From Chiloscyllium plagiosum (lineage: Eukaryota), in assembly GCF_004010195.1 (NCBI RefSeq), contig NC_057754.1, positions 8,465,023 through 8,529,022 of the forward strand: DNA of 64,000 nt. Reading direction: 5' to 3'. Position 1 is the first letter of the stretch. Each line of letters begins with the position of its first letter. The notes beneath the pieces were generated by a model. That model ran no database searches. It was not told the origin of the DNA and saw nothing but the letters and a program-made list of their open reading frames with translations. Positions 5,701 to 64,000 of this stretch are shown here, piece after piece. A program made the position numbers and the translations under genes.

Positions 5701-5704
5701 GTCC

Positions 5705-9575: not shown

Positions 9576-10517
<942 letters not shown>

Positions 10518-11697
10518 CTGCAAGGAGTGCATTCTTTTGTAAGTTGTTGTTAATCATATTCAGGACTAATGTCATTCATTCTGACAACTGGGGTTTGTTT
10601 CTGGTGATGTTACTAATAATACAATAGCTAGAGTAAGCATTGATACTCAGTTCTGCTGCAGTGTCTTGATTTCTGCAATGATAAGAGGAGACTGATAGAT
10701 GTCCCTTGTCAACTGTGCCATTTTTTGAGACTTTCTCACTCAAATTTATTTCCATTTTTGTCTAGTTCTCCTCCCATATTAAACTCCAGGCTTTCATCCA
10801 TCTTGTAAAAACCTGCTGAAGGTTTTACTGGTTACTGCTATCTCCCTCGTGTTCTCTGTTGTCAGTTGGAAGATTTCCAATTATCTCAATTCCATTCTGG
10901 TTCTAGTGTTGTCGTGACAACTGAAGTTTCTACTCCAACACTCTAATCGAGGGCCTGTGTTGACTTTTAGGGAATTTGTCACAAATGAGGACTAGAAGTG
11001 AGGACTGAATTTTGTTTGTTGTTATTAAAGAAAAAACATAGTCTGTAATTTTCTCACTGCCCTCTTGACAAGTGCAATGCATCTCAGCCCTTGACATCAG
11101 AAAGGAGAATTTACTAGTACCCACTGTACAATTGTCTCTTCATTATGGTCACCATCTACACAGCCCTACATTGTCTGCTAGATCTCAAAGACTTTGAGAC
11201 AGAAAGGTGTGTTGGTCGTGTCACCATATGAGGTTGGAGCGTAAGTCAGGTCATCCTCTGAATTGGGAGCACTGGGCCAGGTTACTGTATGAGGGGGCAA
11301 TGGTGGGTCTGGTTATTATGGGGAAGTAGATGTGACTTTTGTCACCATGTCGAAAGAGTGATGAGTATTGTGTGAGTAGTTATTAGCTATTAGAAACTAT
11401 TAACTCTCCTACATTTGTTACTGTAGTGAAAACTCCACCAACACTGGTCTGTTTGAGTTTCCAGCACATTGTGTACTTGAACTTGTATACATTATCCTCT
11501 AACATGCCTGTGATATCCAATAGTCTTACTAACAGCAAGGAGATTGCACGATCACAGAAATCAGTGTTTCTTTTTGTTTTCAGGAATGACATTAACACAA
11601 ATCTTCCTGCCTAACACTGATCTATTTCCCCATCTGTACTCCCAATATCAATGTGATTTATAATATGTAATTAATATATTAATTACATTATAGAGTC

Positions 11698-27715: not shown

Positions 27716-27760
27716 TTCTATGCAATCTCTTTGTAATAAAAACTCTCCTAGTACATAAGT

Positions 27761-28559: not shown

Positions 28560-28772
28560 TTCAAATTCAATAAAGAGTCTGGAAATACGGGTCTAATGAT
28601 GACCATGAATCCATCTAGTTCACCAGTTGGAAGGAAATCTGCCATCTTTAGCTGGTCTGGCCTCCACACCCAGAACAATGTGGTTGATTTTCAACTGCCC
28701 GGAGAGCAAATAGGAATGGGCAAAAAATATTGGCATCACCAGAGATGCCCACATCCTGTGAGTGAATAAAAG
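28560..28772 (+). mobile_element. SINE family B, 3' part
   Basis: aaggaaatctgccatc...ggtctggcct...gatgcccacatcc tail. Confidence 0.7.
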
Positions 28773-28790
28773 GAATAGTTTAACTCTTTT

Positions 28791-29115
28791 GGGGCAGCAC
28801 AATGGCTCAGTGGCTAGCACTGCTGCCTCACAGCGCCAAGACCTGGGTTCAATTTCCGCCTCAGGCAACTGTCTGTGTGGAATTTACACATTCCCCCTCG
28901 TGTCTGTGTGGGTTTCCTCCAGGTGCTCTAGCTTCCTCCCACAGTGGTGGATTGGCCAAGCTAAATTTCCCATAGTGCCCAGGGATGTGTAGGTTAGGTG
29001 GATTAGCCATGGGAAATGCAGGGTTACGAGGGGGGGTGATGTCTGGGTGAGATTCTCTTCAGAGAGTCAATGTGGACTTGTTGAGCCAAATGGCCTGTTT
29101 CCACACTGTAAGATT
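28791..29115 (+). mobile_element. V-SINE
   Basis: tRNA head with A and B boxes plus V-domain. Confidence 0.85.
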
Positions 29116-29539
29116 CTCGTTCTGTGTCTGTAGATCATTCAAACACCTGAAGCCTGAATAGAGCCTCAATAGTGGTTGATTACTGTTGAAGCTTAACTAA
29201 ACCTCAGCTCAATTTAAGAGAGGGCCTGATGAAATTGGGAAAATCAGTAAGCTGCACACAGGAAGGAAGGAGAGATCAAATCTGGAGTAGGACACAACCC
29301 AAGTTAGTAAATTGTTCAGGGACTTTGGAGGCAGTATGGGAATTTGGTATAGGGCAGAAAAGGTACTTTTTTGCTTCTATTTTCGACTGGTAGTTTAGTT
29401 TACTCAGGCCCCTCAATTCAAATGTTTATCCTCTTAATAAAAGCCTTCTAAAGAATGACATCACAGGAAGCTTGCAAGTCTATTGGTTGGTAATAGCTGC
29501 TAATTTGACTAGGTTCATTTCAGATTGAAGGTAAATAGG

Positions 29540-30745
29540 AGACATATTTGCAGGTGACACAAAGATTGATGGAGGGATGGGTAACGGAGAGGCTGCAGGA
29601 GGACTTGGACAGGTTAGAAGAGTGGATAAAGAAGTGGTGGATGGAATACAACATGAGAAAGTGAAGTTGTATGTTTTGGGAGGAAGAGTAGAGGCATACA
29701 CTATTTTCAAAATGGGGGAAATGCTTCAGAAATCTGAAGCATGAAGTGGCTTAGGAGTCCTAATGTAGGATTCTCTTACGGTTAACATGCAGTTTCATTT
29801 GGCAGGTAGGAAGGCAAATGTAATAGAATAGAAACAGGCCATTCAGCCCAACAAGTCCACTCTGACCCTCTGAAGAGTAACCCATCCAGACCCATACCCC
29901 TACCCTATATTTACCCCTGATTGATGCACTTAACCTACACATCTCTGAATGCTATGGGCAATTTAACATGCCCAATTGACCTACTCTGGACATCTTTGGA
30001 TTGTGGGATAAAACTGGAGGAACCAGATGAAACCCACGCATTCATGAGGAAAATGTGCAAACTTAGCACATACAGTCACCCGAGGTTGGAATCAAACCAG
30101 TGTCCCTGACGTCATGAGACAGCAGTGTTAACCACTCAGCCACAGTGCCGCACCATTTCAAGATGGCTAAAATACAGGAGTGTAGATGTACTGCTGAGGC
30201 TGTATATGGCTCTGGTTAGGCTGCATTTGAAATATTGTGATCATTTTTAGACCCTGTATCTAAGGAAGGATGTGCTAACATTGGAGCGGGTTCAGAGAAG
30301 GTTTACAAGAATGATCCCAGGGATGAAGGCCTTGTCAGATGAAGAGCGGTTGAGCACTCTGGGCTTGCACTTGATGGAGTTGAGAAGGATGGAAGAGGAG
30401 ATCTCATTGAAACTTACAGAATGTTGTGAGGGTTGGATACTTTGGAAGAGGAAAGAATGTTTCCACCATTATGAGAGACTAGGAACTGCGGGCACAGCCT
30501 CAGAGTGAAGGGCGGAGCCTTTAGAACAGAGGTGACGAGGAATTTCTTCAGCCAGAGGTTGGTGAATTCATTGCCATAGAAGGCTGTGGAGGTCAAGTCA
30601 TTGAGTGCATTTAAGACAGAGCTAGGTAAGTTCTTAATTAGTAAAGGGGTCAAAGCTTGCAAGGAGAATGGGGTTGAGAAATATATCAGCCATGATTGAA
30701 AGGCAGAGCAGGCCCGATGGGCTTTCTGCTCCTATACTTTATGGC
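29540..30745 (+). mobile_element. CR1 3' fragment with nested V-SINE (29824-30152, minus strand)
   Basis: FAGDTKI, LERVQRRFTRMIPG and 3' UTR; a reverse-complement V-SINE lies within. Confidence 0.85.
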
Positions 30746-31997
30746 TTAAAGGGAACCGCTGTTCTTCATCTGTCTTATCTAAACCTAACAGAAACTAAAA
30801 CACCTGACCCAAAGAGATCAACCTCAGTTTCTCCAAACCAACTTTAAAATTTAAAGTTTTTCATTCCTTGAACTATTCTGGTAAATTTCCTCTGCATCCT
30901 CTCATCCTGTGTAATGTGGTGTGATCACACTGCTTTGCGTGGACCCAATTGCTCTGTGTTCATGTGGATAATGTCATCACATCACAACAATTGCACAATC
31001 ATATTACCCCACTCCCTGGCTATTTCTTTCACTGTATGATTTTTCTGATTGTCGTGTTTCTGATAGCCTTTGAGTTGCAGACTCCAGCAGGGATTTTAAA
31101 ATCGAAAACAATGAAAGCGTTTCAGAAGCAAGTCTTTTTAAATTGGTGCAGTCCATAGACCCTGAATGGGCTTAGATCTGCGTTTGGAACTCTGGGACTT
31201 TTTCCCAGGACCAGATCCAAGTGAACAACCCAAGTTTTGCTTTTCATGATGATCTTCGTGATTCTCTCTTGACCAGGAGAGAAAATTGACTCATTGATTG
31301 CTCCAGCTCCTGGCCACAGACTGAGAATCCAATGAACCCAGGCAGAGGAGAGTGAGGAAAGAGAGAAAAAACTGGTGATGGGTTTCAGCCTAGGGAGGGG
31401 AGAAGAGTATAGGGGATGGGATCTCGCAAAGAATTAAAGGCTACGGGGAGAATGCGGGTAAGTGGAATTGAAATGCCCCTCAGCCATGATTGAATGGCAG
31501 AGTGGACTCAATGGGCTGAATGGCCTTACTTCCACTCCTATGTCTTATGGTCTTATTAACAAAGAAGATGTAAAATCTCAAGTTGTGTGTTGTGAATTTC
31601 TATAAGAGACTGGTAACGATGACTTTTGTAATCTCCCTTTACAGGGCATCAAAAAAATGCATTTGCGAATGAGAAACTGAAACCGAGTGCAGTCTGATTG
31701 AATCTAAAAATCCACCAAGACCGGGGTATCATCAAACTTTGCATATGAAAGGAGAATTGTTTGTCCCTTCTCTCTGTGAGGAAAAATTTCAAAACATCGA
31801 TGTGACTGGAAACATAAACATACACGCCTAAATGTGTGTACTCACAGGCTGACTAGAAAGAGCTTTAATCACTTACACAAGTCTGAATTTTTAAAAAATC
31901 TCACTAGTTAAAGCAAGCAGAGGCCATATGCTTGTTCTGTATGTGGACTGAACCTCAACTGATAGTGACTCTCCAGTTGAACAAAGACGCGGACATC

Positions 31998-32672
31998 ATG
32001 GCAAAGCCGTGGGAATGTGCTGATTGTGGTAAAGGATTTGATTATCCATCTCTGCTGGAAAACCATCGGCGTGGTCACACTGGGGAGAAGCCCTTCATCT
32101 GTTCTGTATGTGGGAAGGGATTTACTCAGACAACCAATCTCATGTCACACCAGCGAACCCACACTGAGGAGAGGCCATTCAACTGCACCCACTGTGGAAA
32201 GAGGTTCAAGTCCTCATTTAGCCTCAGTACACACCAGCGAGTTCACACTGGGGAGTGGCCATTCACCTGTGCATGTTGCGGGAAGGGATTCACTAAGTCC
32301 TCCAACCTGATGACTCATCAGCGAATTCACACAACAGAGAAGCCATTCTGCTGTGCCTCCTGTGGGAGGAGTTTCAGGCAGTCTGGCCACCTCATTGTAC
32401 ACCAGCGAGTTCACACCGGGGAGAAACCATTCAGGTGCTCTTCCTGCGGAAAGCATTTTCGGCAGTCAAATGATCTAATTTCACATCAGCGCGTTCACAC
32501 TGGGGAGAGACCGTACAACTGTTCAGTGTGTGGAAAGGGATTCACTACCTCCTCCAATCTGCTGATACACCAACGCACTCACACTGGGGAGAAGCCATTT
32601 ACGTGCTCCACGTGTGGGAAAGGATTCGCTCAGTCACGAGACCTGTTGAGACATCAGCAAGTTCATAAATGA
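31998..32672 (+). CDS. C2H2 zinc-finger gene C, 8 intact fingers
   Basis: atcATGg start (alternative in-frame ATG at 31941). MAKPWECADCGKGFDYPSLLENHRRGH...HQQVHK*. Probable acceptor ctttacag|G at 31644/31645. No KRAB, SCAN or BTB visible. Confidence 0.9.
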   Translation: MAKPWECADCGKGFDYPSLLENHRRGHTGEKPFICSVCGKGFTQTTNLMSHQRTHTEERPFNCTHCGKRFKSSFSLSTHQRVHTGEWPFTCACCGKGFTKSSNLMTHQRIHTTEKPFCCASCGRSFRQSGHLIVHQRVHTGEKPFRCSSCGKHFRQSNDLISHQRVHTGERPYNCSVCGKGFTTSSNLLIHQRTHTGEKPFTCSTCGKGFAQSRDLLRHQQVHK

Positions 32673-43732: not shown

Positions 43733-44031
43733 ACGGCACGGTGGCTCAATGGTTAGCCCTGCTGCCTCACAGCACCAGAGACCCAGGTTCAATTCCTGCC
43801 TCAGGCAACTGACTGTGTGGAGTTTGCACATTCTCCCTGTGTCTGCATGGATTTCCTCTGGGTGCTCTGGTTTCCTCCCACAGTCCAAAAATGTGTAGGT
43901 TAGGTGAATTGGCCATGCTAAAAATTGCCCGTAGTGTTAGGTTTAGGGCAATGCGTCTGGCTAGGTGGTGGGTCGGTGTGGACTTGTTGGGCCAAAGGGC
44001 CTGTTTCCACACTGTAAGTAATCTAATCTAA
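43733..44031 (+). mobile_element. V-SINE
   Basis: Head, V-domain and taatc tail. Confidence 0.9.
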
Positions 44032-44454
44032 AGTAGCCTGAATGGGTGTGATCAAGTTCCCACCAAACCAGGATTTTTAATTTTAGTTTTCAGTTGCTGG
44101 GGTTCAGCAGGGTTCGGAAGCTGCAGTACATCCCTTCCTCCTACACTTCCTTTGAGGTTTCTCTTGGTGTTTCCTGCTGCTGGAGCTGCATGTGAGACAA
44201 TTTGATTTTCTGAATTTGCCTTTGTCAAGGGCGTGTTTATGATATGTTATAGTGTTGGAACAGTTAATTAGAAATAGTTGCTGTATCAATCATTTTATTA
44301 AGCATTTCGACAGAATTACAGCTAAGCCAATTCTTTATTGTTTTCATTTGTTGTATTTTGCCTTTTCTTTAGTGTATCAATAAAGTGTGTTTTGCTTATA
44401 GCCGGTAGTTTGACCAATCAAATTGCACCAGGACAGCAACATAAGACACTTAAT

Positions 44455-45255
44455 GAATGTAGCTTTGCTCACTGAGCTGGAAGGTTCATTTCCAGATGTT
44501 TCATCACCCTACTAGCTAACATCTTCAGTGACCCTCCAAATGAAGCACTGGTGGTGCAGCCCACTTTCTATTTATATATTTGGGTTTCCTTAGGTTGGTG
44601 ATGTCATTTTATGTAGTGATGTCGTTTCCTGTTCTTTTTCTCAGAAGGTGGTAAATGGGATCCAAGTCAATATGTTTGTTGATCTTCTCAAAACTCGCCA
44701 TATTACACTTAACTGTAAAATGAGCAACATTTAGGGTCTAGAGCTGAAAATATGTTGCTGGAAAAGCGCAGCAGGTCAGGCAGCATCCAAGGAACAGGAG
44801 AATCGACATCACCCTACTAGCTAACATCTTCAGTGACCCTCCAAATGAAGCACTGGTGGTGCAGCCCGCTTTCTATTTATATATTTGGGTTTCCTTAGGT
44901 TGGTGATGTCATTTTATGTAGTGATGTCATTTCCTGTTCTTTTTCTCAGAGGGTGGTAAATGGGATCCAAGTCAATGTGTTTGTTGATCTTCTCAAAACT
45001 CGCCATATTATAGTTAACTGTAAAATGAGCAACATTTAGGGTCTAGAGCTGAAAATGTGTTGCTGGAAAAGCGCAGCAGGTCAGGCAGCATCCAAGGAAC
45101 AGGAGAATCGAAGTTTCGGCCATAAGCCCTTCTTCAGGAATGGCTTATGCCCGAAATGTCGATTCTCCTGTTCCTTGGATGCTGCCTGACCTGCGCTTTT
45201 CCAGCAACACATTTTCAGCTCTGATCTCCAGCATCTGCAGCCCTCACTTTCTCTC
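44455..45255. mobile_element. Poseidon pLTR plus Neptune fold-back pLTR, with 305-bp tandem duplication
   Basis: 44502-44806 is repeated at 44807-45111. The Neptune inverted pair spans ~45046-45255. Confidence 0.85.
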
Positions 45256-45812
45256 AAACATTTAGGATCTAGGCTATCTCCTTAATATATATTGAGGTTG
45301 TTTGCTCTGGTCCCCAAATTGATGAATTAATTCATTTACTTATTCAATGATTCAGTCTTTCCATCCATCCATCCATTCATTCATTCCTCCAGAGCTCACC
45401 TAGAATGAAAACCTCTAACTCCAGGTTGGGTTTAGGATTATTGGACTCAAAGGTGGTGAGTGTTAACTTTTTAAATATATTTCAGGTGTTGAATTCAGTT
45501 AGTTTAGGTGGAGTTTCCTTGGGGGTGGAAGAAGTCACTTTGAGAGTTTAACAGAAAGTGAACCCGGCAAAGCTTTTGGAATTGCGTTATGAACCAAACC
45601 AGAACCCCTCAAAACACATTTGAAGAAGGTAGCCTAGACCCTGACATTTTTTTGTTTCAAATGTAAAAGTGAGGTGCTGTATCATCTGGTTTTGGCACCA
45701 TGATGATGGGTGAGCTCCAGTCACTGCAACTCACTCCAATTATATTGTCTTTGAACATATGTTTAATCTCCTTTTGAACCTGTGCCAACTTTCGAGAGCT
45801 AAGATTCCTACT

Positions 45813-46147
45813 GGGGACGTGATGGCCTAGTGGTATTATCGCTGGACTGTTAATCCAGCGACCCACTTAATGTTCTGGGGGCCTGGGTTCAAATCCCACC
45901 ATGGAAGATGATCAAATTTCAATTCCATAAAAGAACTGGAATTGAAAATCCAATGATGACTGTGAATCAATTGTCAGGGCAAGCTCATTTGGGTCACTAA
46001 TGTCCTTTCTGGATGGAAATTGCCATCCTTACCTGGTCTGGCCTACATGTGACTCCAGACTCACAGCTGTGTGGCTGACTCTTAAATGCCCCATGGGCAA
46101 TAGTTGCTGCTGAGTCAGTGATGCTTTCATCCTGAGAATGAATAAAT
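45813..46147 (+). mobile_element. tRNA-derived SINE family B, near full length
   Basis: A box tggcctagtgg, B box ggttcaaatcc, LINE-like tail catcctgagaatgaataaa. Confidence 0.85.
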
Positions 46148-46329
46148 AGACTTTCCAGTGTTTTCCACACATCTCCTCATGAGATTAATAATTATTTCAG
46201 AGCATTTCGATTTTCTCTGAAATGTAACTCAGCAATTTATCCCAATTTTTGAGAACTTCCTCTTGTCCAATTTAGTATGAGGAATGTCCAATTCAGAATC
46301 ATCTGAACTTGATTCATCACTTGTGTTGT

Positions 46330-47293
46330 AACAAAGTGATGATGCTGTGGCCTTAAGAGGTATATTTTGTACTGGTTTCTGTTGAGAGAGATGCTGAGCA
46401 TGAGGCAATGTAAATATCTTGTAGGGCCTTGGGATTTTCTTTTAAAGTTGGAACAATGGAAGCAGTCTGGATTGGTGTGGCCAGCTGTCACAGACCAAGA
46501 TTTCTGGGTCTTATCTAATTGTTAGATTTGGCAAACGCTGCTGGAGTTTTACAATGGAATAGAATCCCTACAGTGTGGAAACGGGCCCTTTGGTCCAACA
46601 AGTCCACACCAACCCTCCAAAGAGTAACCCACCCGGACCCATTCCCCTACATTTACCACTGACTAATGCACCTAACCTATGCATCCCTGAACACTATGAG
46701 TCATTTAGCATGGCCAATTCATCCTAACCTACACGTCTTTGGAAAGAAACCGGAGCACCCAGAGGAAACCCATGCGGACACAGGGAGAATGTGCAAACTC
46801 CACACAGACAGTTGCCTGAGGTTGGAATTGAACTCAGGTCCCTGGTGCTGTGAGGCAGCAGTGCTAACCACTGAGCTACCATGCGAAGGAATAGAAGCTA
46901 TTTTTCCCTCTCTCTCTCTGTTATAGATGGAACCTGGAGCTTCTCTTCTGACTGCAAGAGTTGCTTGTGAGAAAATCTGATTTTTGAATTTGCCTTTTCA
47001 CCAAAGGGTGTATTTATGGTATGTTACTGTATTGGAACAGTTAGTTAATAATAGTTACCGAATCTACCATTCTGTAAAGTTTTCCAAAAGAGTTTTTATT
47101 CTAAGTTATTCTTTCTTTTGGTATACTTGAACTACAGAGTTTGGATAACTTGTGTTTTGTTTAACATCAAGTAGTTTGAAAAATTGAATTGTATCTGGAA
47201 CACAGCGCTTTACAGTTGCTGTTAAAATAAGACAAAGTTAGGGTCAAGGCTACCTTGTTCAAACATTTCAAGAGGTTCTGTCTGGTCCATAAC
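46330..47293 (+). mobile_element. Solo LTR of the Gmr1-like family, with nested V-SINE (46555-46885, minus strand)
   Basis: Ends ...ggtccataaCA; homologous to 43605-45315 and to the reverse complement of 54733-54895; sits between IN and RT. Confidence 0.7.
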
Positions 47294-48658
47294 ACAAGTA
47301 GCACACTCTCCTTTTGTTTTCCTTCCTATCAAATGCCTTTTGAGCATATTCACATGCCATACTCTGAGATTTCTTTCTGTCTGGAGTTCTTAATAAGTAA
47401 TAAGTCCTTTTGATTTGATAGTCCGTAGTAAATTTTGCTTTTAAAAGTTCACCTTCCATGGGTGGATCACTTTATCTCCATGAGTAAAATTGTGATGTTT
47501 TGATTGACTTTCTGCCTCCTGTTTCATCACATGCTGTGCTATTTTCAAATGCTGTCCAGTCAACTCACCCACTCTATTTAATCTTTCCCTAAAATTAGGC
47601 ACGCAGTCAAAATATGTAGTCACCGATCTCTGACTCACCAATTCCTCCTTAATTAATGTCAGTGGTTCTCTCACCTCATGCACAAAAATTAAATCAAAAT
47701 GGACTGATTTTGGTAGATTCATTAGGTTGCAAATATTTAGTAGCTTCATTAATTGCAAAATGTACAAATTGAATTCCTTTATCCCAAACCTCTGGACAAA
47801 TCTTGATTAAAGATCATGTTGAGACTTATAATGTTATAATGTTTGATGTCGCCATTCTAATGCTTCCTGTAATTCTCGATGGTGTGCAGTGGATTGAATT
47901 TTTTTACTCCCAGGGTATCCACAATTTCCTTGAATAATGTTGATGTAAAATTTGACCCTTGATCTGATCGTATCTCTGTGCATAGTCTGTATCTGATAAA
48001 AAAAATTGAGTAACTCTTCTACAATGCTTTTAGCTGTCACCCTGCTTAGTGAAATGGCCTCTGAAAAGCTATTGGACACATCCATCATGGTCAACGAAAT
48101 CTGAGTCCCACTTTTTTTGGTTTAGGGAGGGGTTCTGTCCAATCAATTAAGACCCTTGTAAAAGGTTCCTCAAATGCTGGAATCAGTATTAAAGGTCTTG
48201 GTTTTATCACCTCCTGGAGTTTTCCAATTACCTGACACGTATTACATGTCTGGCAAAATTCAACCACATCTGCACGCAGCCCAGGTGGTTATAAAAGCTT
48301 TTTGTATTTTGGCCTGAGTTTTTCTTTCTCCCAAATGATCTTCTAATGATCATTCATGTTGTACCCTCAGCATCTCCTTTCTGTAACCCACCGTTAATGT
48401 AACTTGAGGAAATGGAGACCATCACATTTTCTGTTGGATGAGGAATGGGCAGAAGGTCATCATCAAGATTTTGTTTCTCAGATAGTAACATTCTGGGATA
48501 CACTCAAATTCTTCTTCTGTGTATACTATTGATACAGTTGCTGTAGTTTTTCATCTTTCTGTTGTATTCACTGAATGAAAAATATCCTTCACTTTGTCCT
48601 TCGTCTGTTCTTTTTTTCTCTCTCAATCATTTGATCAGACATAGTTATACTTCAACTT

Positions 48659-49068
48659 GGAGAAAGTGAGGACTGCAGATGCTGGAGATCAGAGCTGAAA
48701 ATGTGTTGCTGGAAAAGCGCAGCAGGTCAGGCAGCATCCAAGGAGCAGGAGAATCGACGTTTCGGGCATGAGCCCTTCTTCAGGAATGAGGAAAGTGGGC
48801 CAAGCAGGCTAAGATAAAAGGTAGGGAGGAGGGACTTGGGGGAGGGGCGTTGGGAATGCGATAGGTGGAAGGAGGTTAACGTGAGGGTGATAGGCTGGAG
48901 AGGGGGTGGGGGCGGAGAGGTCGGGAAGAAGATTGCAGGTGAAGAAGGCGGTGCTGAGTCTGAGGCTGAAATGTTCCGCAAGTAGGCGGCCTGTCTCCCC
49001 AATATAGAGGAGGCCACATCAGGTGCAGCGGATGTAGTAAATGATGTGTGTGGAGGTGCAAGTGAATT
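48659..49068 (-). mobile_element. Neptune Penelope fragment (GIY-YIG part plus pLTR)
   Basis: Reverse-complement FTCTSTHIIYYIRCT*CGLLYIGETGRLLAE, with the pLTR to 48659. Confidence 0.9.
48752..48787 (-). ncRNA. Minimal type I hammerhead motif (Neptune pLTR), intact
   Basis: Reverse complement reads attc-CTGAAGA-a-gggc tcat gccc-GAAA-cg-TC-gatt. Confidence 0.75.
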
Positions 49069-49371
49069 CGTATTATTCAACTTCCCTATCAGAGACTACA
49101 TTTATTCTTTGATTTCTCCTTCAACCTGTGGCTTTGCGACCTCGTTACCACACAGTCAGGAAAAACCCCAGCATATACTTCCGATAATACCTCCAGTTGC
49201 CTGAGTCTCCACTGACGTTTCAACCCATCTATGATCCAGCCATATCATTACCAAGGATAAACTGTATTCCTGGAACCGAGAGTTTCTCTATTACTCCTAC
49301 CACCACTTCTTCTGGTGTTACAACTTCTGAATTACCTCTTTTCATCTCTCACTATCAAAGATTGACTTACT

Positions 49372-49700
49372 GTCATAGAGTCATAGAGATGTACAGCATA
49401 GAATCAGACCCCTCGGTCCAACCCTTCCATGCCAACCAGATATCCAAACCCAATCTACACCCACCTGCCAGCACCGGGACCATATCCCTCCAAACCCTTC
49501 CTATTCATATACCCATCCAATTGCCTCTTAAATGTTACAATTGTACCAGCCTCCACCTCTGATAGCTCATTTCATACCCATGTGAAATGCTTGCACCTTA
49601 GGTCTCTTTTATATCTTTCCCCTCTCACCCTAAACCTATGCCCTCTAGTTCTGGACTCCCTGATCCCAGGGAAAAAACTTTGCCTAGTTACCCTATCCAT
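49372..49700 (-). mobile_element. CR1 3' fragment inserted in the Gypsy protease region
   Basis: Reverse-complement CR1 3' UTR with tctatgac tail. Confidence 0.9.
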
Positions 49701-49767
49701 TGTTTAAAATTACAATAGCTTTACCTATTCCTCTGGGCATACATGAATAAATGTTACTCACAAGTAA

Positions 49768-50075
49768 ATTAGATTCCCTACAGTATGGAAACAGGCCCTT
49801 CGGCCCAACAAGTCCACACCAACCCTCCGAAGAGCAACCCACCCAGATCCATTCCCCTGCCCTATATATACCCTTGACTAATGCGCCCAACACCATGGAC
49901 AACTTAGCCTGGCCAATTCACCTGACCAGCACATCTTTGAACTGTGGGAAGAAACCCACGCAGGCACAGGGAAAATGTGCAAAGTCCACACATAGAGTCG
50001 CCTGAGGTGGGTATTGAACCCAGGTGCCTGGCTCTGTGAGGCAGCAGTGCTAACCACTGAGCCATCGTGCCGCCC
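49768..50075 (-). mobile_element. V-SINE
   Basis: Reverse-complement head (gccatcgtgccgccc), V-domain and tail. Confidence 0.9.
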
Positions 50076-50366
50076 CATTCTTTGAAGAGATCTCGCGATT
50101 TCTTCTCCCCCAAACCTGACCGGGTTGTACGTACTTTTGCAGCTTTGTAGTTTTCCCCATCCTTTCCTTTACCACTTCAACAAAGCTCACCGACATTTCC
50201 TGTTCTCCCCCATCCGTCTTCCCAGTGCTTTTTCTAACCCACCAACACTCCAATTTCATGTGGCCTACTTTATTGCTATGGAAACACCCGTGCTTTTTTT
50301 TCACTTCTCTCATGGGTTTCCTTTTTACCCTGCGGTAAACTACCTTTATTGTCTTCGATGAGATCT

Positions 50367-50694
50367 AGGAGAAAGTGAGGACTGCAGATGCTGGAGATCA
50401 GAGTCGAGAGCGCGGTTCAGTCCGCCAGGGATAGAAATTTGGGAAAAGAGAAATCCTCAGATGGTAAGGGAAAAGGAGATCTCATTGAAGTCGAGAGTAT
50501 GGTGCTGGAAAAGCACAGCCGGTCAGGCAGCATCCCAGGAGCAGGAGAATCAACATTTCGGGCTTAAGCCCTTCATCAGGAATCATTCCTGATGATAAAG
50601 CTTCCTGATGAAGGGCTTATGCTCTAAACATCGATTCTCCTGCTCCTCGGATGCTGCCTGACCTGCTGTGCTTTTCCAGCACCATACTCTCGAC
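50367..50694. mobile_element. Neptune pLTR fold-back inserted in gag, 13-bp TSD
   Basis: ttcgatgagatct at 50354 and ttcaatgagatct at 50695; inverted pLTR arms. Confidence 0.85.
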
Positions 50695-51874
50695 TTCAAT
50701 GAGATCTCCTTTTCCCTTACCATCTGAGGATTTCTCTTTTCCCAAATTTCTATCCCTGGTGGACTGAAATTGATGTTGGAAGTAAAACTCCGATCTGTCA
50801 GCCAACTCATAATCATTAACCCTCTCCTAATTTTTCACGATCTGGTTGTCCACATGAGTTCTCACTATTTCAGGGAATCAAGTTTTAACCACCTCCAAAA
50901 TATTCGTCTCTCTGAAAGTGGATCAAATGTATGATGCTCTTAAAGTAATTTTGATAGGTGTATAAGAACATGATTTGATCCTTTCGAACTCAATGTACCT
51001 CCTTTGATTCCTGAAACGTTGTCTATAGATTTCTGGCATTAGTTTATACACACTAGTTCATGTGCACTAGTTCCAATGGCTTGCCTCACCACCTCAAACT
51101 CCCTAGGTATCTCCTCTGACAGTGATGCGAATATCTCACTACCTCGACCTGCCAACTTTGTTTGAATCAATCATATCCGTATAGTCACTGGCCTTTTCAT
51201 TTGAGAAAGTGGCTAAACAAATTAAATATGTTCAAGTGTTGCCTAAGTTTGAGGAGAAGGATGTAGAAGCCTTTTTCATTTAAACAGATCCCCACCGGGC
51301 CTTTGGCTGCAATGGGTTTGCACGTCATCACTATCCTTCTCACTAAGCCCATCTCTACCTCTGCCTCCACCCTTTCACATCGAATTTCCTCTCCAATTGC
51401 TAACTTCTGAAGTTCACCTTCTCTCTCTTTCTCCCTTTCTTCTCTCTTTCTGCTTTCCTTCCGCTTTCAATCATAATTCAAACTGTTTTGTTTTCTTTTT
51501 TCTTCATTTTCCCTCTAATTCAAACTGCTTCATTTGCCATTGCCAGAGATTCCAGTGGCATTGCTGGCAATCATAAACGTCAAAGTATTATAACAAAAAG
51601 GATATGGGAGATATAGAATGTAGGGAAGTAGATGGTGACACCTTGAAAAATTTCCATATTACAGAGGAGTAAGTGCTGGATGTCTTGAAATGCATAAAGG
51701 TGGATAAATCCCACGACCTAGGGTTCAGAAAAGATTTACAAGGATGTTGCCAGGGTTGGAGGATTTGAGCTAAAGGGAGAGGCTGAACAGGCTGGGGCTG
51801 TTTTCCCTGGAGCGTCGGAGGCTGAGGGGTGACCTTATAGAGGTTTACAAAATTATGAGGGGTAAGGATAGGCT

Positions 51875-52603
51875 TGTAATGGAAAATTGACAAAATTAAC
51901 GTTTATTGTGAAATCTGTAAAAGAATACCTTCCTAAGTCAATTTACTGCAGACAGCCTGACTTTGCTGAATCCTGTGAACAGACAGCTTGTCCTTGCAAG
52001 TTTTGCAAACAATCTAATTCAGCAGAGTCAGGGGAAAACACAAGGGCAGGAGCAGTTTTTTCAACAGTAAAGGAATGGGAAAACAACTCCTTATATGGAA
52101 AAGGGCTTGAATTGTTCCCAAGGTGATTGTCCTTGAGGTGAGATAAGGCTTAGCGAAGTATGATATAAAGGAAATGGATGAATGCTCCGGGTGCTCCGGT
52201 TTCCTCCCACAGTCCAAAGATGTGCAGGGCCAGGTGAATTGGCCATACTGAATTGCCCGTAGTGTTAGGTAAGGGGTAAATGTAGGGGTATGGGTGGGCC
52301 GAAGGGCCTGTTTCCACACTGTAATCTAATCTAATCTAATCTAATCTAATCTAATCAACAGTAAAGGAATGGGAAAACAACTCCTTATGTGGAAAAGGGC
52401 TTGAATTGTTCCCAAGGTGATTGTCCTTGAGGTGAGATAAGGCTTAGCGAAGTATGATATAAAGGAAATGGATGAATGATACTCGGGACCCCTTGCGTAA
52501 GACATTTTGTCAAGTGTAGAGGGTCCCTTTCCAAAGGCCTGTAATAAAACTTTTTCTTTGCTCTCGCAAGCATTTGAGTCGAGTCAATTTAATTTCCATG
52601 ACA
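51875..52603 (+). mobile_element. Solo LTR
   Basis: TGTAATGGAAAATT...AATTTCCATGACA termini, 5-bp TSD aggct/aggat, AATAAA at ~52543. Confidence 0.85.
52185..52354 (+). mobile_element. 5'-truncated V-SINE inside the solo LTR
   Basis: V-domain 3' half plus ~7 TAATC units, flanked by a 124-bp direct repeat. Confidence 0.9.
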
Positions 52604-54914
52604 AGGATAAATAGACAAAGTTTTTTTCCCTGGTGTTGGGGAGTCCAGAACTGGACGGCCTAGGTTTAGGGTGAGAGGGGAAAGATATAAAAGAGACCTA
52701 AGGGGCAGCTTTTTCACTCAGAGGGTGGTACGTGTATGGAATGAGCTGCCAGAGGAAGTAGTGGAGGCAGCTACAATTGCAACATTTAAAAGGATGGGTA
52801 CATGAATAGGAAGGGTTTGGAGGGATATGGGCCGGGTGCTGACAGGTGGGACTAGATTGGGTTGGGATATCCGGTTGTCATGGATGGGTTGGACCGAAGG
52901 GTCTGTTTCCATGCTGTACATCTCTATGACCTGATCAGGTGTACCCTAGAACTCTGTGGGAAGCTAGAGAAGTGATTGCTGGGTCTCTTGCTAAAAGATT
53001 CGTATCATTGATGATACCGGAGGTGAGGTGCCGGAAAACTGGAGGTTGGCTAATGTGGTGCCACTGTTTAAAAAGGGTGGTAAGGACAAGCCTGGAAACT
53101 ATGGACCAGTGAGCCTGACGTCAGTGGTGGGCAAGTTGTTGGAAGGAATCCTGAGGGACAGGATGTACATGTATTTGGAAAGGCAAGGACTGATTAGGGA
53201 TAGTCATCATGCTTTTTGTGTGGGAAATCATGTCTCACAAACTTGATTGAGTTTTTTGAAGAAGTAACAAAGACGATTGATGAGGGCAGAGTGATAGATG
53301 TGATCTATATGGACCTCAGTAAGGTATTCGACAAGGTTCCCCATGGGAGACTAGTTAGCAAGGTTAGATCTCATGGAATACAGGGAGAACTAGCCATTTG
53401 GATACAGAACTGGCTCAAAGGTAGAAGACAGAGGGTGGTGGTAGAGGGTTGTTTTTCAGACTGAGGCCTGTGACCAGTGGAGTGCCACAAGGTTCGGTGC
53501 TGGGCCCTCTAATTTTTGTCATTTACATAAATGATTTGGATGCGAGCATAAGAGGTACAGTTAGTAAGTTTGCAGATCACACCAAAATTGGAGATGTAGT
53601 GGACAGCAAAGAGGGTTACCTCAGATTACAACAGGATCTTGACCAGATGGGCCAATGGGCTGAGAAGTGGCAGGTGGAGTTTGATTTAGATAAATGTGGC
53701 ATGCTGCATTTTGGAAAAGTAAATCCCAAGGTAAGGTCCTTGGGAGTGTTGCTGAACAAAGAGACCTTGGAGTGCAGGTTCATAGCTCCTTGAAAGTGGA
53801 GTCGCAGGTAGACAGGATTGTGAAGAAGGCATTTGGTATGCTTTCCTTTACTGGTCAGAGCATTGAGTACAGGAGTTGGGAGGTCATGTTGCAGTTGTAT
53901 AGGACGTTGGTTAGGCCACTGTTGGAATATTGTGTGCAATTCTGGTCTCCTTCCTATCGAAAAGATGTTGTAAAACTTGTAAATCTTATCTGAATCCTTT
54001 CAAGGATGTTGCCAGGGTTGGAGGATTTGAGCTATAGGGAAAGGTTGAACAGGCTGGGGCTGTTTTTCCTGGACCATTGGAGGCTGAGGGGTGACATTAT
54101 AGAGGTTTATAAAATCATGAGGGGTATGGATAGGATAAATAGACAAGGTCTTTTCCCTGAGGTGGGGGAGTCCAGAACTAGAGGGCATAGGTTTAGGGTG
54201 AGAGGGGAAAGATATAAAAGAGACCTAAGGGGCAACTTTTCACTCAGAGGGTGGTACATGTATGGAATGAGCTGCCAGAGGAAGTGGTGGAGGCTGGTAC
54301 AATTAGAACAGCTAAAAGGCATCTGGATGCGTATATGAATAGAAAGAGTTTGGATGGATATGGGCCAGGTGCTGGCAGGTCGGACTAGATTATCTGGTAA
54401 GGATATCTGGTCAGCATGGTTGGGTTGGACCGAAGGGTCTGTTTCCATGCTGTACATCTCTATGACTCTAATTACCATCCCTTTTCGCATTGTCAAAGGC
54501 AACCCCAATTCCAGCTGGTCTATCAATTCTAAAGGCTTGCCTTTCTCACTTCCTGTAAAACTCCCTACGTGACCTCTTCCACCCCGAGGGAATTCATAGT
54601 GACTGAACGAGCTATCACGAGACAAAGCACACCCTGTTTAAACCAACCGAAACACAAGACGTTAACATTACCATTCGCTAGTAATCCTAAACCCAACTTG
54701 GAATTAGAGATCCCAACAAGAGCTTCCAATTTATTATGGACCACACCAGACCCCCTCAAAGTGTATCAAGAAGGTAGCCTCGACTCTACCTTTCCCTTAT
54801 TTCCAAGCTAAAATTGAGGTGCTGTGTTTCAGATGCAATTCAATTGGTCAACTTGTTTGACCTTAAGCAAAACACAATTTATTCAAACACGATTGTTGGA
54901 TTGAGTTAAAATTC

Positions 54915-57824: not shown

Positions 57825-58130
57825 TGAGATTCACCCTCAGAATAATGCCAGTGTATTTAGATCCATCTTCTTAATCGTAATCGCTCATGGGAGATTCACG
57901 TGCCCAATGATTCCGGTTTAGTCAGATTCACAAACAGAAGAATTCTGCTTCAGCCAGATTCACACTCAGAATCATTCCACACTGGTCAAATCACACTCAA
58001 AGTATTTCTGGTCCAGTAAGTCTCGCACTCAGAATGAGTCAAGTTTGGTCAGACTTATACTCAGAATGATTCCATTCTAGTCGGATTCACACTCGGGATG
58101 TCCCGGTTTGGTTAGATTCACATTCAGAGG
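57825..58130. repeat. 32-bp satellite, degenerate left block
   Basis: cacactcagaatgattcc.gt.tagtcagatt-like units. Confidence 0.75.
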
Positions 58131-61100
58131 GCATCCAGTCTGGTCACTATTATAAAGCACCCAGTCCGGTCACCATTATAACACATCCAGTCCAGTCACC
58201 ATTATAAAGCATCCAGTCCAGTCATCAATATAATGCATCCAGTCCGGTCACCATTATAACGCATCCAGTCCGGTCACCATTATAACGCATCCAGTCCTGT
58301 CATCAATATAATGCATCCAGTCCAGTCACCATTATAAAGCATTCAGTCCGGTCACCATTATAATGCATCCAGTCCAGTCACCATTATAAAGCATCCAGTC
58401 CGGTCACCATTGTAACGCATCCAGTCCGGTCATCATTTTAATGCATCCAGTCCAGTCACCATTATAAATCATCCAGTTGGTCACCATTATAATGCATCCA
58501 GTCATAAATCATCCAGTTGGTCACCATTATAATGCATCCAGTCTGGCAATTATAAAGCACTCAGTCTGGTCACCATTATAACACATCCAGTCGGTCATCA
58601 ATATAATGCATCCAGTCCAGTCACCATTATAAATCATCCAGTTGGTCACCATTATAATGCATCCAGTCTGGCAATTATAAAGCACTCAGTCTGGTCACCA
58701 TTATAACGCATCCAGTCCAATCATCAATATAATGCATCCAGTCCAGTCACCATTATAACACATCCAGTCGGTCATCAATATAATGCATCCAGTCCAGTCA
58801 CCATTATAACACATCCAGTCGGTCATCAATATAATACATCCAGTCCAGCCACCATTATAACTTATCCAGTCCGGTCACCATTATAACGTATCCAGTCCAG
58901 TCACCATTATAAAATATCCAGTCCAGTCACCATTATAACGCATCCAGTCCGGTCACCATTATGACGCATCCAGTCCAGTCACCATTATAACGCATACAGT
59001 CCGGTCACCATTATAACGTATCCAGTCCAGTCACCATTAAAACGCGTCCAGTCCAGTCACCATTATAATATATCCAGACCAGTCACCATTATAACGCATC
59101 CAGTATGGTCACCATTATAACGCATCCAGTCCAGTCACAATTATAACGTATCCAGTCCAATCATCAATATAATGCATCCAGTCCAGTCACCATTATAAAG
59201 CATCCAGTCCAGTTATCATTATAACATATCCAGTCCAGTCGCCATTATAACACATCCAGTCCAGTCACCATTATAACACATCCAGTCCAGTCACCATTAT
59301 AACGCATCCAGTCCGGTCACCATTAAAACATATCCAGTCTGGTCACCATTAAAACGTATCCAGTCCGGTCATCAATATAATGTATCAAGTCCGGTCACCA
59401 TTAAACACATCCAGTCCAGTCACCATTATAACGCATCCAGTCCAGTCACCATTATAATGTATCCAGTCCGGTCATCAACATAATGCATCCAGTCCGGTCA
59501 TCAACACGGGTCACCATTATAATGCACACAGTCTGGTAACCATTATAAGAGATCCAGTCTGTTCACCATTATAATGCATCCAGTTCAGTCACCATTGTAA
59601 AGCATCCAGTCTGGTCACAATTATAACGCATCCAGTCCAGTCACCATTATAAAGCATCAAGTCGGGTCACCATTATATTGCACACAGTCTGGTAACCATT
59701 ATAACAGATCCAGTCTGGTCACCATTATAACGCATCCAGTCTGGTCACCATTGTAAAGCATCCAGTCCGGTCATCAACATAATGCATCCAGCCCGGTCAT
59801 CAACACGGGTCACCATTATAATGCACACAGTCTGGTAACCATTATAAGAGATCCAGTCTGTTCACCATTATAACGCATCCAGTCCAGTCACCATTATAAC
59901 GCATCCAGTCCGGCCACCATTATAACGCATCCAGTCCAGTCACCGTTATAAAGCATCAAGTCGGGTCACCATTATATTGCACACAGTCTGGTAACCATTA
60001 TAACAGATCCAGTCTGGTCACCATTATAACGCATCCAGTCTGGTCACCATTGTAAAGCATCCAGTCCGGTCACAATTATAAAGCATCCAGTCCGGTCACC
60101 ATTATAAAGCAACCAGTCCGGTCACCATTATAACGCATCCAGTCTGGCAATTATAAAGCACCCAGTCCAGTCACCATTATAACGTATTCAGTCCAGTCAC
60201 CATTATAACATATCCAGTCCAATCATCAATATAATGCATCCAGTCCAGTCACCATTATAAAGCATCCAGTCCAGTTATCATTATAACATATCCAGTCCAG
60301 TCGCCATTATAACACATCCAGTCCGGTCACCATTATAACACATCCAGTCCAGTCGCCATTATAACACATCCAGTACGGTCACCATTATAACACATCCAGT
60401 CCAGTCACCATTGTAACGCATCCAGTACGGTCACCATTATAACACATCCAGTCCAGTCGCCATTATAACACATACAGTCAGTCATCAATATAACGCATCC
60501 AGTCCGGTCACCATTATAACATATCCAGTCCAGTCACCGTTATAAAGCATCAAGTCGGGTCACCATTATATTGCACACAGTCTGGTAACCATTATAACAG
60601 ATCCAGTCTGGTCACCATTATAACGCATCCAGTCTGGTCACCATTGTAACACATCCAGTCCAATCACCATTATAATGCATCCAGTCCGGTCACCATTATA
60701 ACACAGTCCGGTCACCATTATAACGCATCCAGTCCAGTCACCATTATAACACATCCAGTCCAGTCACCATTATAATGTATCCAGTCCGGTCATCAATATA
60801 ATGCATCCAGTCCAGTCACCATTATAACGCATCCAGTCCAGTCACCATTAGAACGCATCCAGTCCAGTCACCATTATAACGCATCCAGTCCAGTCACCAT
60901 TATAATGTATCCAGTCCGGTCATCAACATAATGCATTCAGTCCAGTCACCATTATAAAGCATCCAGTCCGGTCACCATTATAATGCACACAGTCTGGTAA
61001 CCATTATAACAGATCCAGTCTGGTCACCATTATAACGCATCCAGTCCAGTCACCATTAAAACGTATCTAGTCCAGTCACCATTAAAACGTATCTAGTCCA

Positions 61101-61950
61101 GTCACCATTATAACGCATCCAGTCCAGTCACCATTATAACACATCCAGTCCAGTCACCATTATAACGTATCCAGTCCAGTCACCATTATAACATATCCAG
61201 TCCAGTTATCATTATAACGTATCCAGTCCAGTCACCATTATAACATATCCAGTCCAGTCACCATTATAACGTATCCAGTCCAGTCACCATTATAACACAT
61301 TCAGTCTAGTCACCGTTATAAAGCATCAAGTCGGGTCACCATTATAAGCACACAGTCTGGTAACCATTATAACAGATCCAGTCTGGTCACCATTATAACG
61401 CATCCAGTCCAGTCACCATTGTAAAGCATCCAGTCCGGTCACAATTATAACGCATCCAGTCCGGTCACCATTATAATGTATCCAGTCCGGTCACCATTAT
61501 AATGCATCCAGTCCAGTCACCATTATAACGTATCCAGTCCAGTCACCATTATAACGCATCCAGTCCGGTCACCATTAAAACGTATCCAGTCCGGTCGTCA
61601 ATATAATGCATCCAGTCCAGTCACCATTATAACGCATCCAGTCCAGTCACCATTATAACACATCCAGTCCAGTCACCATTATAACGCATCCAGTCCAGTC
61701 ACCATTATCATGGATCCAGTCCAGTCACCATTATAACGCATCCAGTCTGGTCATAATTATAATACATCCAGTCTGGTAATTAAAGATCATCCAGTCCAGT
61801 CACCATTATAACGCATCCAGTCTGGTAATTATAAATCATCCAGTCCGGTCAAAATTATAACGCATCCAGTCTGGTCACCATTATAAAGCATCCAGTCTTT
61901 TCACTATTATAACGCATCCAGTCTGGTCACTATTATAACGATTCCAGTCC
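58131..61950. repeat. 26-bp tandem array (~145 units)
   Basis: Consensus GCATCCAGTCC(A/G)GTCACCATTATAAC. Confidence 0.98.
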
Positions 61951-63364
61951 AGTAAGATTCAAACTCAGAACAATTCCAGTCAATTCAGATTAATACTCAA
62001 AATGTTTCCAATCTGATCAGATCCAAATTCTTAATAATTCTGGTCCTGTCAAAATCACACTCAGTATAATTCCAGCCTAGTCAGACACATGCTCAGTATG
62101 ATTCCTGTCTGGACAGATACATACTCAGAATGAATACATTCTAGTCAGACAGACGCTCAAAATGATTCCAGGCTAGTCAGATACACACTCAGTATGATTC
62201 CGGTCTAGTCGGATAATTACTAGGTACAGTTTCGGCCCAGTCAGATACACATTCTGCATGATTCCATTCAAGTCAGACAGACTTCATTCCAATCTAGTCA
62301 GATACACATTCAGTATGATTCTGGTCTAGTCAGATGCAGACTTGTAGTTGGAGCTCGGCCTAGTCAGATACATGCTCAGTACGATTCCTGCCAAGTCAGA
62401 TACACACTAAGTATGATTCCGGCCTAGACACATACACACTCAGTGTGATGCCGTTCTAAACAGACACACACTCAGAACGATTTCAGCCTAGTCAGACACA
62501 AACTCAGTCTGAATCCATTCCAGTCAGACACATGCTCAAAATGATTCCAGTCTAGTCAGATACGTACTTAGTATGATTCTGGTCTAGTCAGATACACACT
62601 CAGTATGATTCCAGTCAAGTCAGATACACACGCAGTCTGAAACCTCTAGTCAGACAGACGCTCAAAATGATTCCAGTCTAGTCAGATACACATGAAGAAT
62701 GATTCAGGTCGAGTCAGGTGCACACTCAGAATGATTTCGGTCTAGTCAGATACACAATTTTACATGGAGTTCAACCTCATCAGATATACACTCAGAAGGA
62801 TTACGGCCTCGTCACATACACAATCAGTCTGAATCCATTCTAGTCAGGCAGACGCTCAAAATGATTTCGGTATAGTCAGATACACACTCAGTATGATTCC
62901 AGCCTAGACACATACGCACTCAGTATAATTCCGGTCCAGACAGACACACACTCCGTACGATTTCGGCCTAGTCAGATACACACTCAGTATGAATCCATTC
63001 CAGTCAACGTCATACTCAGCATGATTCTGGCCTAGTCAGATGCACACTCAGTATGATTTCAACCTAATCAGAAACACACTCATTATGGTTCCGGCCTAGT
63101 CAGATCCACACTTAGTATGGTTCTGGTCTATTCAGATACACACTCAGAATGATTCCGGTCTAGTCAGTTATACACTCAGTATGATTCCAGTCTAGTCAGA
63201 TAGACACTCTCAGTATGAGTTCGAGATAGTCAGATATATGCTCAGTATGATTCCATCCTAGTCCGATACGCACTCAGTATGATTTCAGCCTAGACACATA
63301 CACACTCAGAATGATTCCAGCCCAGTCAGATACACACTCAGTATGAAATCATTCTAGTCAGACA
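61951..63364. repeat. 32-bp tandem array (~44 units)
   Basis: Consensus CACACTCAGTATGATTCC(A/G)GTCTAGTCAGATA. Confidence 0.95.
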
Positions 63365-64000
63365 TGTGGGATATAGATGAATTAATGTTATTTCTGCAAC
63401 TATAAATTCTGATACAGAACAAGAATGAGGAAATATATATATATCCAGCTAAAAAAATGATATGTTAGCATGAGACATGATTATAGAACAATGGTAGATG
63501 TATAGGCAAACAGGAAAAAAACTATAAATTCTGATACAGAACAAGAATGAGGAAATATATATATCCAGCTAAAAAAATGATATGTTAGCATGAGACATGA
63601 TTATAGAACAATGGTAGATGTATAGGCAAACAGGAAAAACATCTGTTTCCCACTTGTACAGAGACACAGGAACAAACCCCAATTAAAAGGGCTTAGTGAT
63701 AAGATGCTGAGGGGCAGCGCAGATGGAGGGAGTAGATAATGGTTAGCAAAGGATGGGATGACGTCAAACAACCTTATGGGGGGCCAGAGATAGGCATTTG
63801 TCACGGACAAGACTGGATAAACAGAAGTTGTGGGATCGGTCTTAAGGAAATGAATGACGTAAGCGGAGGATGGGGGCAAACAATGAAATAAGAAAAAATA
63901 TGGGGATTCAAACTGTATAAATTTCGAGAGTTTGTTGGATTTGATGTGCATTTGTCATTGTCTTACCTGGTATTAGACATTGCGCCCACTTGCAAGTGTA
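63365..64000 (+). mobile_element. Possible LTR (U3-like) with 122-bp tandem duplication, running off the window
   Basis: Starts with TG abruptly after the satellite. 63398-63519 is repeated at 63520-63639. TGACGTCA at ~63760 and TGTATAAA at ~63914. Confidence 0.4.

Follow-up and report, generated by a model that had tools for sequence, protein, structure and literature searches.

A probable Gmr1-like Ty3/Gypsy fossil with a SCAN-like capsid region lies beside zinc-finger genes in a shark genome

The active ancestor of Gmr1-clade elements encoded a single polyprotein, encapsidated its RNA, carried out tRNA-primed reverse transcription and integrated. Goodwin and Poulter 2002 is reportedly the source for the Gmr1-like clade, and Emerson and Thomas 2011 is said to be that for the amniote SCAN domain.

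The Gmr1-like clade is defined by its domain order, with protease, integrase and reverse transcriptase following each other (PR-IN-RT; PMC3587641, 10.1101/2025.03.03.638093). Fish and turtles are reported to hold many such elements (10.1101/2025.03.03.638093); the clade also occurs in frogs and crustaceans (PMC4131045, PMC3587641), and more than 50% of frog Gmr elements bear a SCAN match (PMC4131045). The amniote SCAN domain (PF02023), found in SCAN(-KRAB)-zinc-finger proteins, and the Gmr1 capsid C-terminal region have a common ancestry, a Gmr1 capsid having once been the source of this human protein domain (PMC4592553, PMC8321522). According to the accessible text of 10.1101/2025.03.03.638093, the published capture involved a Gmr1 element upstream of zinc fingers, and a survey of 68 genomes gave a single amniote SCAN acquisition; figure 1B and the supplements of that source may include cartilaginous fish. 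The accessible part of Wells et al. 2023 (PMC10547256) mentions neither sharks nor SCAN. None of the papers listed by our literature search, which covered few subscription journals and no repeat databases, dealt specifically with shark Gmr1 elements.

Here we describe the span 45587..54895 of the window (the whole 64-kb stretch of shark DNA analysed). Judged from its sequence, it is very probably an ancient, inactive Gmr1-like Ty3/Gypsy LTR retrotransposon and an incidental neighbour of zinc-finger genes. It shares with the Gmr1-like clade the PR-IN-RT order, a SCAN-like capsid C-terminus, a zinc knuckle, LTRs and an integrase that groups with IN-first elements. Unlike the live members of the clade, the copy is dead: most of the RT and all of the RNase H are gone, the frames are broken, and nested inserts occupy 5656 of its 9309 nt (about 60%). 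Its minus-strand pieces (LTR, gag, zinc knuckle, protease, integrase and RT start) are collinear with an intact Gmr1-type polyprotein. The coding pieces are as follows.

51051..51502, minus strand: gag coiled region plus the N-terminal portion of the capsid (within-window E 1.1e-4)
50818..51036, minus strand: capsid C-terminal (SCAN-like) region, where Gmr1 gag profiles find their best window match (E 1.1e-4, against 5.8 for the next)
50230..50319, minus strand: gag zinc-knuckle remnant (tblastn E 0.26; profile E 0.045, best in the window)
49116..49333, minus strand: protease C-terminal half with ILGND (E 1.6e-8)
47307..48529, minus strand: integrase region, frameshifted, with H2C2 zinc domain, catalytic core and C-terminal part
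46140..46326, minus strand: probable IN-RT linker, placed by position only (weak profile score, 24/900 shuffles as good)
45684..45803, minus strand: first ~40 codons of RT (E 3.8e-13, 0/900 shuffles)

The reference was P0001, an intact polyprotein of 1515 aa in which Pfam domains run in the order SCAN (205-292), Integrase_H2C2 (644-700), rve (723-816), p58_C (961-994), RVT_1 (1142-1298) and RNase H (1363-1494). Mapping the window with it by tblastn placed gag at 51448-50836, the knuckle at 50319-50230, the protease at 49333-49116, the integrase region at 48529-47307 and the RT start at 45833-45684; six further relatives gave the same collinearity. The four motifs on which the initial annotation had built its reading were recovered on the minus strand in the order it gave (gag motif 51036-51007, ILGND 49258, SDQGSNF 47967, RT motif 45716), and the Gmr1-type order was borne out, with the integrase (48529-47307) preceding the RT start (45803-45684) on the same strand. 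The protease runs straight into the integrase at Gmr1 spacing. Its catalytic N-terminal motif was undetectable, and its N-terminal half scored at shuffle level (247/900 as good). No match to the remainder of RT or to RNase H was found in the window. Pfam profiles were weak on pieces so decayed: Integrase_H2C2 matched at E 0.00094 and, among the domains proposed for searching, rve was recovered at E 0.029, whereas neither SCAN nor RVT_1 matched on the element's strand. A word-index search with the integrase frame returned one match among 82 candidates. No tRNA genes or Rfam families were found within the 64-kb window.

We weighed whether integrase and RT come from unrelated insertions, the Gmr1 order being a nesting accident in a canonical Gypsy element. 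Inserts do lie between the two domains, and among 57 relatives RT comes first in three. The three hold ranks 122, 126 and 148 of 150; the integrase precedes RT or RH in the other 54, and precedes RT in 44 of the 47 integrase relatives having both domains. Against this reading, the direct passage from protease to integrase is spaced as in Gmr1, the relatives matched by the RT start are the same, and the integrase itself clusters with IN-first elements. In a quick IQ-TREE analysis (55 rows, 120 columns), the window integrase fell in a 50-row group (SH-aLRT 95) containing zero RT-first rows; two rows labelled IN-first (P0265 and P0204) lay outside this group, one of them adjoining an RT-first row. 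An origin from unrelated insertions is largely refuted and highly improbable. As the tree contains no named Gmr1 reference, it is domain order and SCAN content that place the element in the clade.

The top matches among 1.84 billion representatives were Gmr1-type polyproteins of sea urchins (XP_054753966.1 and XP_054757359.1 from Lytechinus pictus, XP_071502498.1 from Diadema antillarum), at 45-46% over the query. They form one group with the window element (SH-aLRT 98) and differ from it in host phylum. Organism names were available for 12 of 30 relatives looked up: seven echinoderms, four decapods, one arachnid and no vertebrates, a distribution to be read with the clustering in mind, as each representative stands for one 50% cluster and vertebrate members may be hidden behind echinoderm ones. 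Horizontal transfer out of an echinoderm-type subclade was considered as the family's route into sharks; it seems improbable and we do not claim it.

The SCAN-like character of the gag was assessed at 51036-50818. Scored with a profile built on the C-terminal (Pfam SCAN) part of the Gmr1 capsid, this segment reached 18-21 bits, a value attained by 0/1000 shuffles, which upholds the proposal that it is the capsid C-terminus and a homologue of the SCAN progenitor. The segment had no match to Pfam SCAN (PF02023), and against a profile of 32 host SCAN domains it reached 1.3 bits, which is chance level (28/1000 shuffles as good); a PDB sequence search with the frame found no match. It is also broken, with three stops in 73 codons, a short gap and a garbled middle; the longest open stretch of gag (89 codons) lies upstream of this frame. 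PF02023 was carried by all 120 gag relatives among the matches listed (the best 120 of 2557), and a SCAN-like capsid is normal for the Gmr1 clade. Of the three outcomes by which the initial annotation would have been contradicted (an RT fragment from a separate insertion, RT-RH-IN order in full-length family members, a gag segment lacking any SCAN or capsid profile match), none was observed.

The ends of the element and a second copy of its family were delimited as follows.

54734..54895, minus strand: 3' part of the 5' LTR, matching both the inner LTR and what is left of the 3' LTR at 74-75%
54710..54728, minus strand: degenerate PBS-like site directly after the LTR end (12/18 ungapped matches to the tRNA-Pro motif)
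54470..54709, minus strand: leader and probable gag start, identical in 126/163 columns to the corresponding part of the second copy
46327..47293, plus strand: same-family LTR, reversed, between IN and RT (nhmmer E 1.4e-19 to the 5' LTR)
45587..45682, minus strand: LTR 3' end, joined straight to the RT start
44030..45586, plus strand: second, divergent family copy with LTR (222/318 columns), nested repeats, leader (126/163) and gag start

Flanking direct LTRs are present, both truncated: the remnants 54734-54825 and 45587-45680 are direct repeats with 89 of 118 ungapped columns identical (~75%). The 5' part of the 5' LTR was not found in the window, where other repeats begin at 54945, and the regions holding the polypurine tract and the 5' boundary are missing from the element. 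The primer-binding site proposed earlier is plausible by its position directly after the LTR end, but its score of 12/18 against the tRNA-Pro primer motif is reached by seven sites in the window and is not significant without that position. The protein-level match of the probable gag start was weak (7/900 shuffles as good). The second copy ends abruptly where the main element ends. The initial annotation had mentioned neither this copy nor the reversed LTR, and likewise neither the loss of most of the RT and all of the RNase H nor the element's orientation opposite to the nearest array.

These structures bear on whether the span is a composite of at least two copies of one Gmr1-like family, with, for example, the RT start and 3' LTR contributed by a neighbour through deletion or recombination; such a composite would still be Gmr1-type and dead. 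Between IN and RT lie the reversed LTR and a further repeat held within it (46547-46884), and the linker match there is weak. Similarity among the three LTR remnants is nearly even (74-75%); the 3' piece therefore does not have to be the main element's own LTR. The target duplication of the element is unreadable because the front of the 5' LTR is missing; around the inner LTR, reading of the flanks gave no clean duplication. On the other hand, the coding pieces are all collinear, non-redundant and on one strand, and once inserts are excluded the distance from the IN end to the RT start leaves space for about one linker (P0001 residues 1009-1099). We regard a composite as unlikely, and favour a single decayed Gmr1-like element, interrupted by the following inserts.

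51600..54470: nested inserts, for the most part plus-strand LINE pieces (RVT_1, plus strand, ~53216-53748), multi-copy in the window; presumably CR1
50365..50768, no strand assigned: palindromic nested repeat with inverted arms 50416-50587 and 50597-50768, which we take to be Penelope-type
49374..50079, no strand assigned: two nested inserts (49765-50079 and 49374-49700), multi-copy in the window, presumably a SINE and a LINE tail
48652..49100, no strand assigned: nested repeat pieces (repeats 48652-48791 and 48966-49071)

Short stretches inverted in place were observed in gag (51165-51283; z 8.2, 6.7 and 4.3) and in the integrase region (48398-48466). A possible flip within the SCAN-like region is no more than suggestive (one profile, 2/1500 null frames; the other profile, nothing) and was absent from a separate analysis of in-place inversions. 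At the flip edges, inverted repeats measure 4-6 nt and do not exceed those at random sites in length; they therefore do not demonstrate a repeat-driven mechanism. Such flipped stretches could gain importance if they were unusually frequent in shark DNA.

A single element of this kind probably inserted antisense within an older copy of its own family and then decayed neutrally. The loss of most of the RT, of the RNase H and of the 3' LTR's front portion would go back to one deletion. The element would later have gained the same-family LTR and several other repeats, and small in-place inversions probably arose within it. We infer that it has no coding function today and that its proximity to zinc fingers is incidental.

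The window holds three C2H2 arrays.

31908..32672, plus strand: nearest array, eight fingers in a 254-codon open frame, pointing to the element's 3' end
9655..10560, plus strand: array whose frame is broken internally by a stop after 247 codons
3887..4513, minus strand: array of seven fingers; alone among the three it shares the element's strand, and 46 kb separate it from the SCAN-like segment

These arrays had been described as effector-less, and we concur: SCAN, KRAB and BTB gave no match in any of the 137 open frames of at least 38 codons. The top three zinc-finger proteins of 120 matches listed came from Heterodontus and Mustelus (62-65%), which supports the shark host proposed by the initial annotation, and an Atlas look-up with the nearest array returned generic C2H2 clusters only. 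A search of sequencing runs listed no RNA run matching the stretch, a result that says nothing about expression; DNA runs from two organisms had words in common with it and are given no evidential weight here. The distance of about 13 kb given by the initial annotation holds for the element's 3' end (12,915 nt from the nearest array) but not for the SCAN-like segment, which lies 18,146 nt downstream of that array and antisense to it, in contrast to the published capture with its Gmr1 element upstream of the fingers (10.1101/2025.03.03.638093).

Could the SCAN-like segment nevertheless serve, or have served, as an exon spliced to a neighbouring C2H2 gene, a shark parallel to the amniote capture? 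Its homology to the SCAN progenitor would suit this role, as would the lack of an annotated effector domain in the three arrays and likewise in 5/5 shark zinc-finger proteins among the matches listed. However, the segment has its three stops in 73 codons and lacks host-SCAN character; it lies on the wrong strand and side relative to the two nearer arrays, which both stand, in opposite orientation, between it and the distant third. It gives no C2H2 array an intact reading frame placed ahead of the fingers and running in their direction. At least two C2H2 fingers occurred in 0/271 gag and integrase relatives (for gag, the best 120 of 2557), and the SCAN-bearing zinc-finger proteins (32 of 120 matches listed) were amniote in 32/32 cases, in line with the single acquisition in the 68-genome survey. 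Such an exon is extremely improbable, and the earlier suggestion that the locus holds raw material for a SCAN-ZNF fusion is unsupported. Unlike the amniote SCAN domain, the segment sits within a retroelement gag, broken and unjoined to zinc fingers. Situated beyond the 3' end of its nearest zinc-finger neighbour and pointing in the opposite direction, the element is thus ordinary fossil DNA and no incipient fusion.

We conclude that this Gmr1-like copy is an additional fossil of a known clade without structural novelty. As it stands, its import is small: it adds one shark fossil to that clade. The locus itself is not a SCAN-like donation event. That a less decayed copy of the family elsewhere in the shark lineage gave its capsid C-terminal region to an effector-less C2H2 gene, in a second SCAN-like birth outside amniotes, is very unlikely. 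A shark gag-ZNF fusion, if found, would matter because SCAN capture is held to be a single event; such a donation, if true, would be an independent origin of SCAN-like zinc-finger proteins outside amniotes.

The minus strand of 45587–54895 carries all four motifs of the initial annotation (the gag motif, ILGND of the protease, SDQGSNF of the integrase and the RT motif) in the order claimed; a long retroelement open frame is absent from the element span. Pfam recovered Integrase_H2C2 (E = 0.00094) and rve (E = 0.029) on the element, but neither SCAN nor, on its strand, RVT_1, the RVT_1 matches being confined to the plus strand within nested LINE pieces. Searching with the element's best integrase frame, we found P0001, an intact relative polyprotein (1515 residues; Pfam order SCAN, H2C2, rve, p58_C, RVT_1, RNase H), to which the matched pieces of the window are collinear:

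51448–50836, minus strand, gag
50319–50230, minus strand, zinc knuckle
49333–49116, minus strand, C-terminal half of the protease (relative-profile E = 1.6e-8)
48529–47307, minus strand, integrase region (C-terminal part, relative-profile E = 1e-10)
45833–45684, minus strand, RT start (relative-profile E = 3.8e-13)

Six relatives closer than P0001 gave the identical layout. With domain profiles built from 17 long relatives, signal was weak or absent for the gag start, the protease catalytic motif and the IN–RT linker, and no trace was found of the remainder of RT and of RNase H. The RT start is directly adjoined by the 3′ LTR remnant, a junction that we read as a single large deletion.

The proposed assignment to the Gmr1 clade is supported by the domain order, integrase upstream of RT being the hallmark described for Gmr1-like elements (PMC3587641; 10.1101/2025.03.03.638093), and by the relatives and the integrase tree. 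A full HMMER scan returned 1058 integrase matches at E ≤ 0.001. Among the best 150 of these, integrase came first in 44 of the 47 relatives with both IN and RT (54/57 when RH and P0001 were also counted); the three that depart from this order stand at ranks 122, 126 and 148 of the matches listed. A quick IQ-TREE run comprised 54 of 151 relatives, three of them RT-less top matches and the others chosen for a long integrase match together with RT or RH; a named Gmr1 reference was not among its rows. The 50-row group that held the window integrase contained no RT-first row (SH-aLRT 95); nested therein, the integrase belonged to a 5-row group (SH-aLRT 98), and the three named proteins of that smaller group come from sea urchins. 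Two rows labelled IN-first lay outside the 50-row group.

The nearest named relatives of integrase 47881–48288 are sea-urchin elements, and no vertebrate is represented among the 12 relatives that bear an organism name (among the matches listed); this closeness hints at a possible transfer, but the comparison library is clustered at 50%, which can hide vertebrate members. Elsewhere, 16040–16440 (plus strand) gave very weak matches to the element's relatives, integrase C-terminus then RT (E = 0.27–6), which may mark a third Gypsy remnant in a much more advanced state of decay.

A Pfam SCAN match is reported for over 50% of frog Gmr elements (PMC4131045), and PF02023 was present in 120/120 gag relatives of P0001 (best 120 of 2557). 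A gag-relative profile of this region matched the window best at 51036–50818 (E = 1.1e-4; next, 5.8), directly behind the capsid N-terminal match. This segment scored 18–21 bits on two retroelement profiles (equalled by 0/1000 shuffles), while a profile built from 32 host SCAN domains gave it 1.3 bits (28/1000), and its frame has 3 stops in 73 codons. Judged by the retroelement match, the weak host-SCAN score and the stops, it is the decayed capsid C-terminus expected for the Gmr1-like clade.

Could such a segment be raw material for a SCAN–ZNF fusion, as had been suggested? Three C2H2 arrays lie in the window:

3887–4513, minus strand
9655–10560, plus strand, with an internal stop
31908–32672, plus strand, nearest to the element

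SCAN, KRAB and BTB were matched by none of 137 open frames of at least 38 codons in 4400–9800 and 22700–32000; exons that are smaller or farther away, or effector domains of unnamed kinds, may still occur. Among 120 listed zinc-finger proteins, ordered by finger number and not a census, the three most similar were from sharks (62–65%), in agreement with the shark host proposed; neither SCAN nor KRAB occurred in the five shark proteins listed, and all 32 SCAN-bearing proteins were amniote. Published accounts report a single capture, in which a KRAB zinc-finger gene had the Gmr1-like element on its upstream side (10.1101/2025.03.03.638093; PMC4592553; PMC8321522). The geometry here is wrong for capture because the element is 3′ of and antisense to the nearest array, 18,146 nt from the SCAN-like segment, and the sole same-strand array is 46,305 nt off, past two opposite-strand arrays. 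Two or more C2H2 fingers were found in 0/271 relatives of gag or integrase among the matches listed. With the stops, the wrong strand and side, and no host-SCAN match above chance, the fusion proposal is unsupported.

The two arrays within 3887–10560 point away from each other, and a CpG-rich stretch between them, near 6500–7000, suggests a shared two-way promoter. Another, near 23000–23500, may be the promoter of array 31908–32672.

The LTR remnants, 54734–54825 and 45587–45680, are direct repeats identical at 89/118 columns. Two further pieces of the family were found:

46327–47293, opposite orientation to the element, LTR between IN and RT, 74% alike to both remnants, no clean target duplication
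44030–45586, plus strand, second, divergent copy (LTR, leader, gag start) beyond the 3′ remnant

The second copy ends, cut, at the junction with the main element and is probably its insertion site. Nested inserts, which we take to include CR1, SINE and Penelope pieces, fill about 5656 of the 9309 nt, with boundaries drawn by eye. A PBS-like site at the expected place matches 12/18 positions of what we assume to be the tRNA-Pro primer motif, which alone is not significant.

The second copy's LTR region holds a recent 305-nt tandem duplication (44502–45111, 98% identical), and 52061–52184 and 52355–52478 form a near-perfect 124-nt duplicate pair. Long tandem arrays of 26-nt and 32-nt units occupy 57900–64000. 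An assembly gap (22053–22616, 564 N) lies inside a repeat with a frame that resembles a GIY-YIG endonuclease piece.

Short template-switch inversions are a mutation class described in PMC5453318 and PMC8755829. Among 689 profile windows, set against 4134 null windows of which 17 gave a z of at least 3, four runs, plus two marginal ones, fitted better when taken from the opposite strand, each at the position expected for it:

51224–51283, z 8.2
51188–51229, z 6.7
51165–51203, z 4.3
48398–48466, z 7.9

Those within 51165–51283 are three adjacent blocks, each inverted in place. The flipped coding stretches are about 40–70 nt each, with edge repeats no longer than expected by chance. Such flips are not limited to the Gypsy fossil, because 150 alignments of repeat copies (40.8 kb) revealed three more of 18–29 nt, against copies in 53154–54469:

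about 14502, reversed match 27/29
about 41157, reversed match 24/27
about 42779, reversed match 17/18

The replication cycle of Gmr1-like elements runs from RNA packaged into capsids, through reverse transcription primed by a tRNA, to integration. Domain order, homology, breakage and nesting can be read directly from this element. It would have inserted into an older copy of its own family and then decayed neutrally over a long time, losing sequence by deletion, taking up secondary insertions and gathering point changes and small inversions. Great age is indicated by the 25% divergence of the LTR remnants, over 118 columns of uncertain pairing, and the element most likely has no present function.
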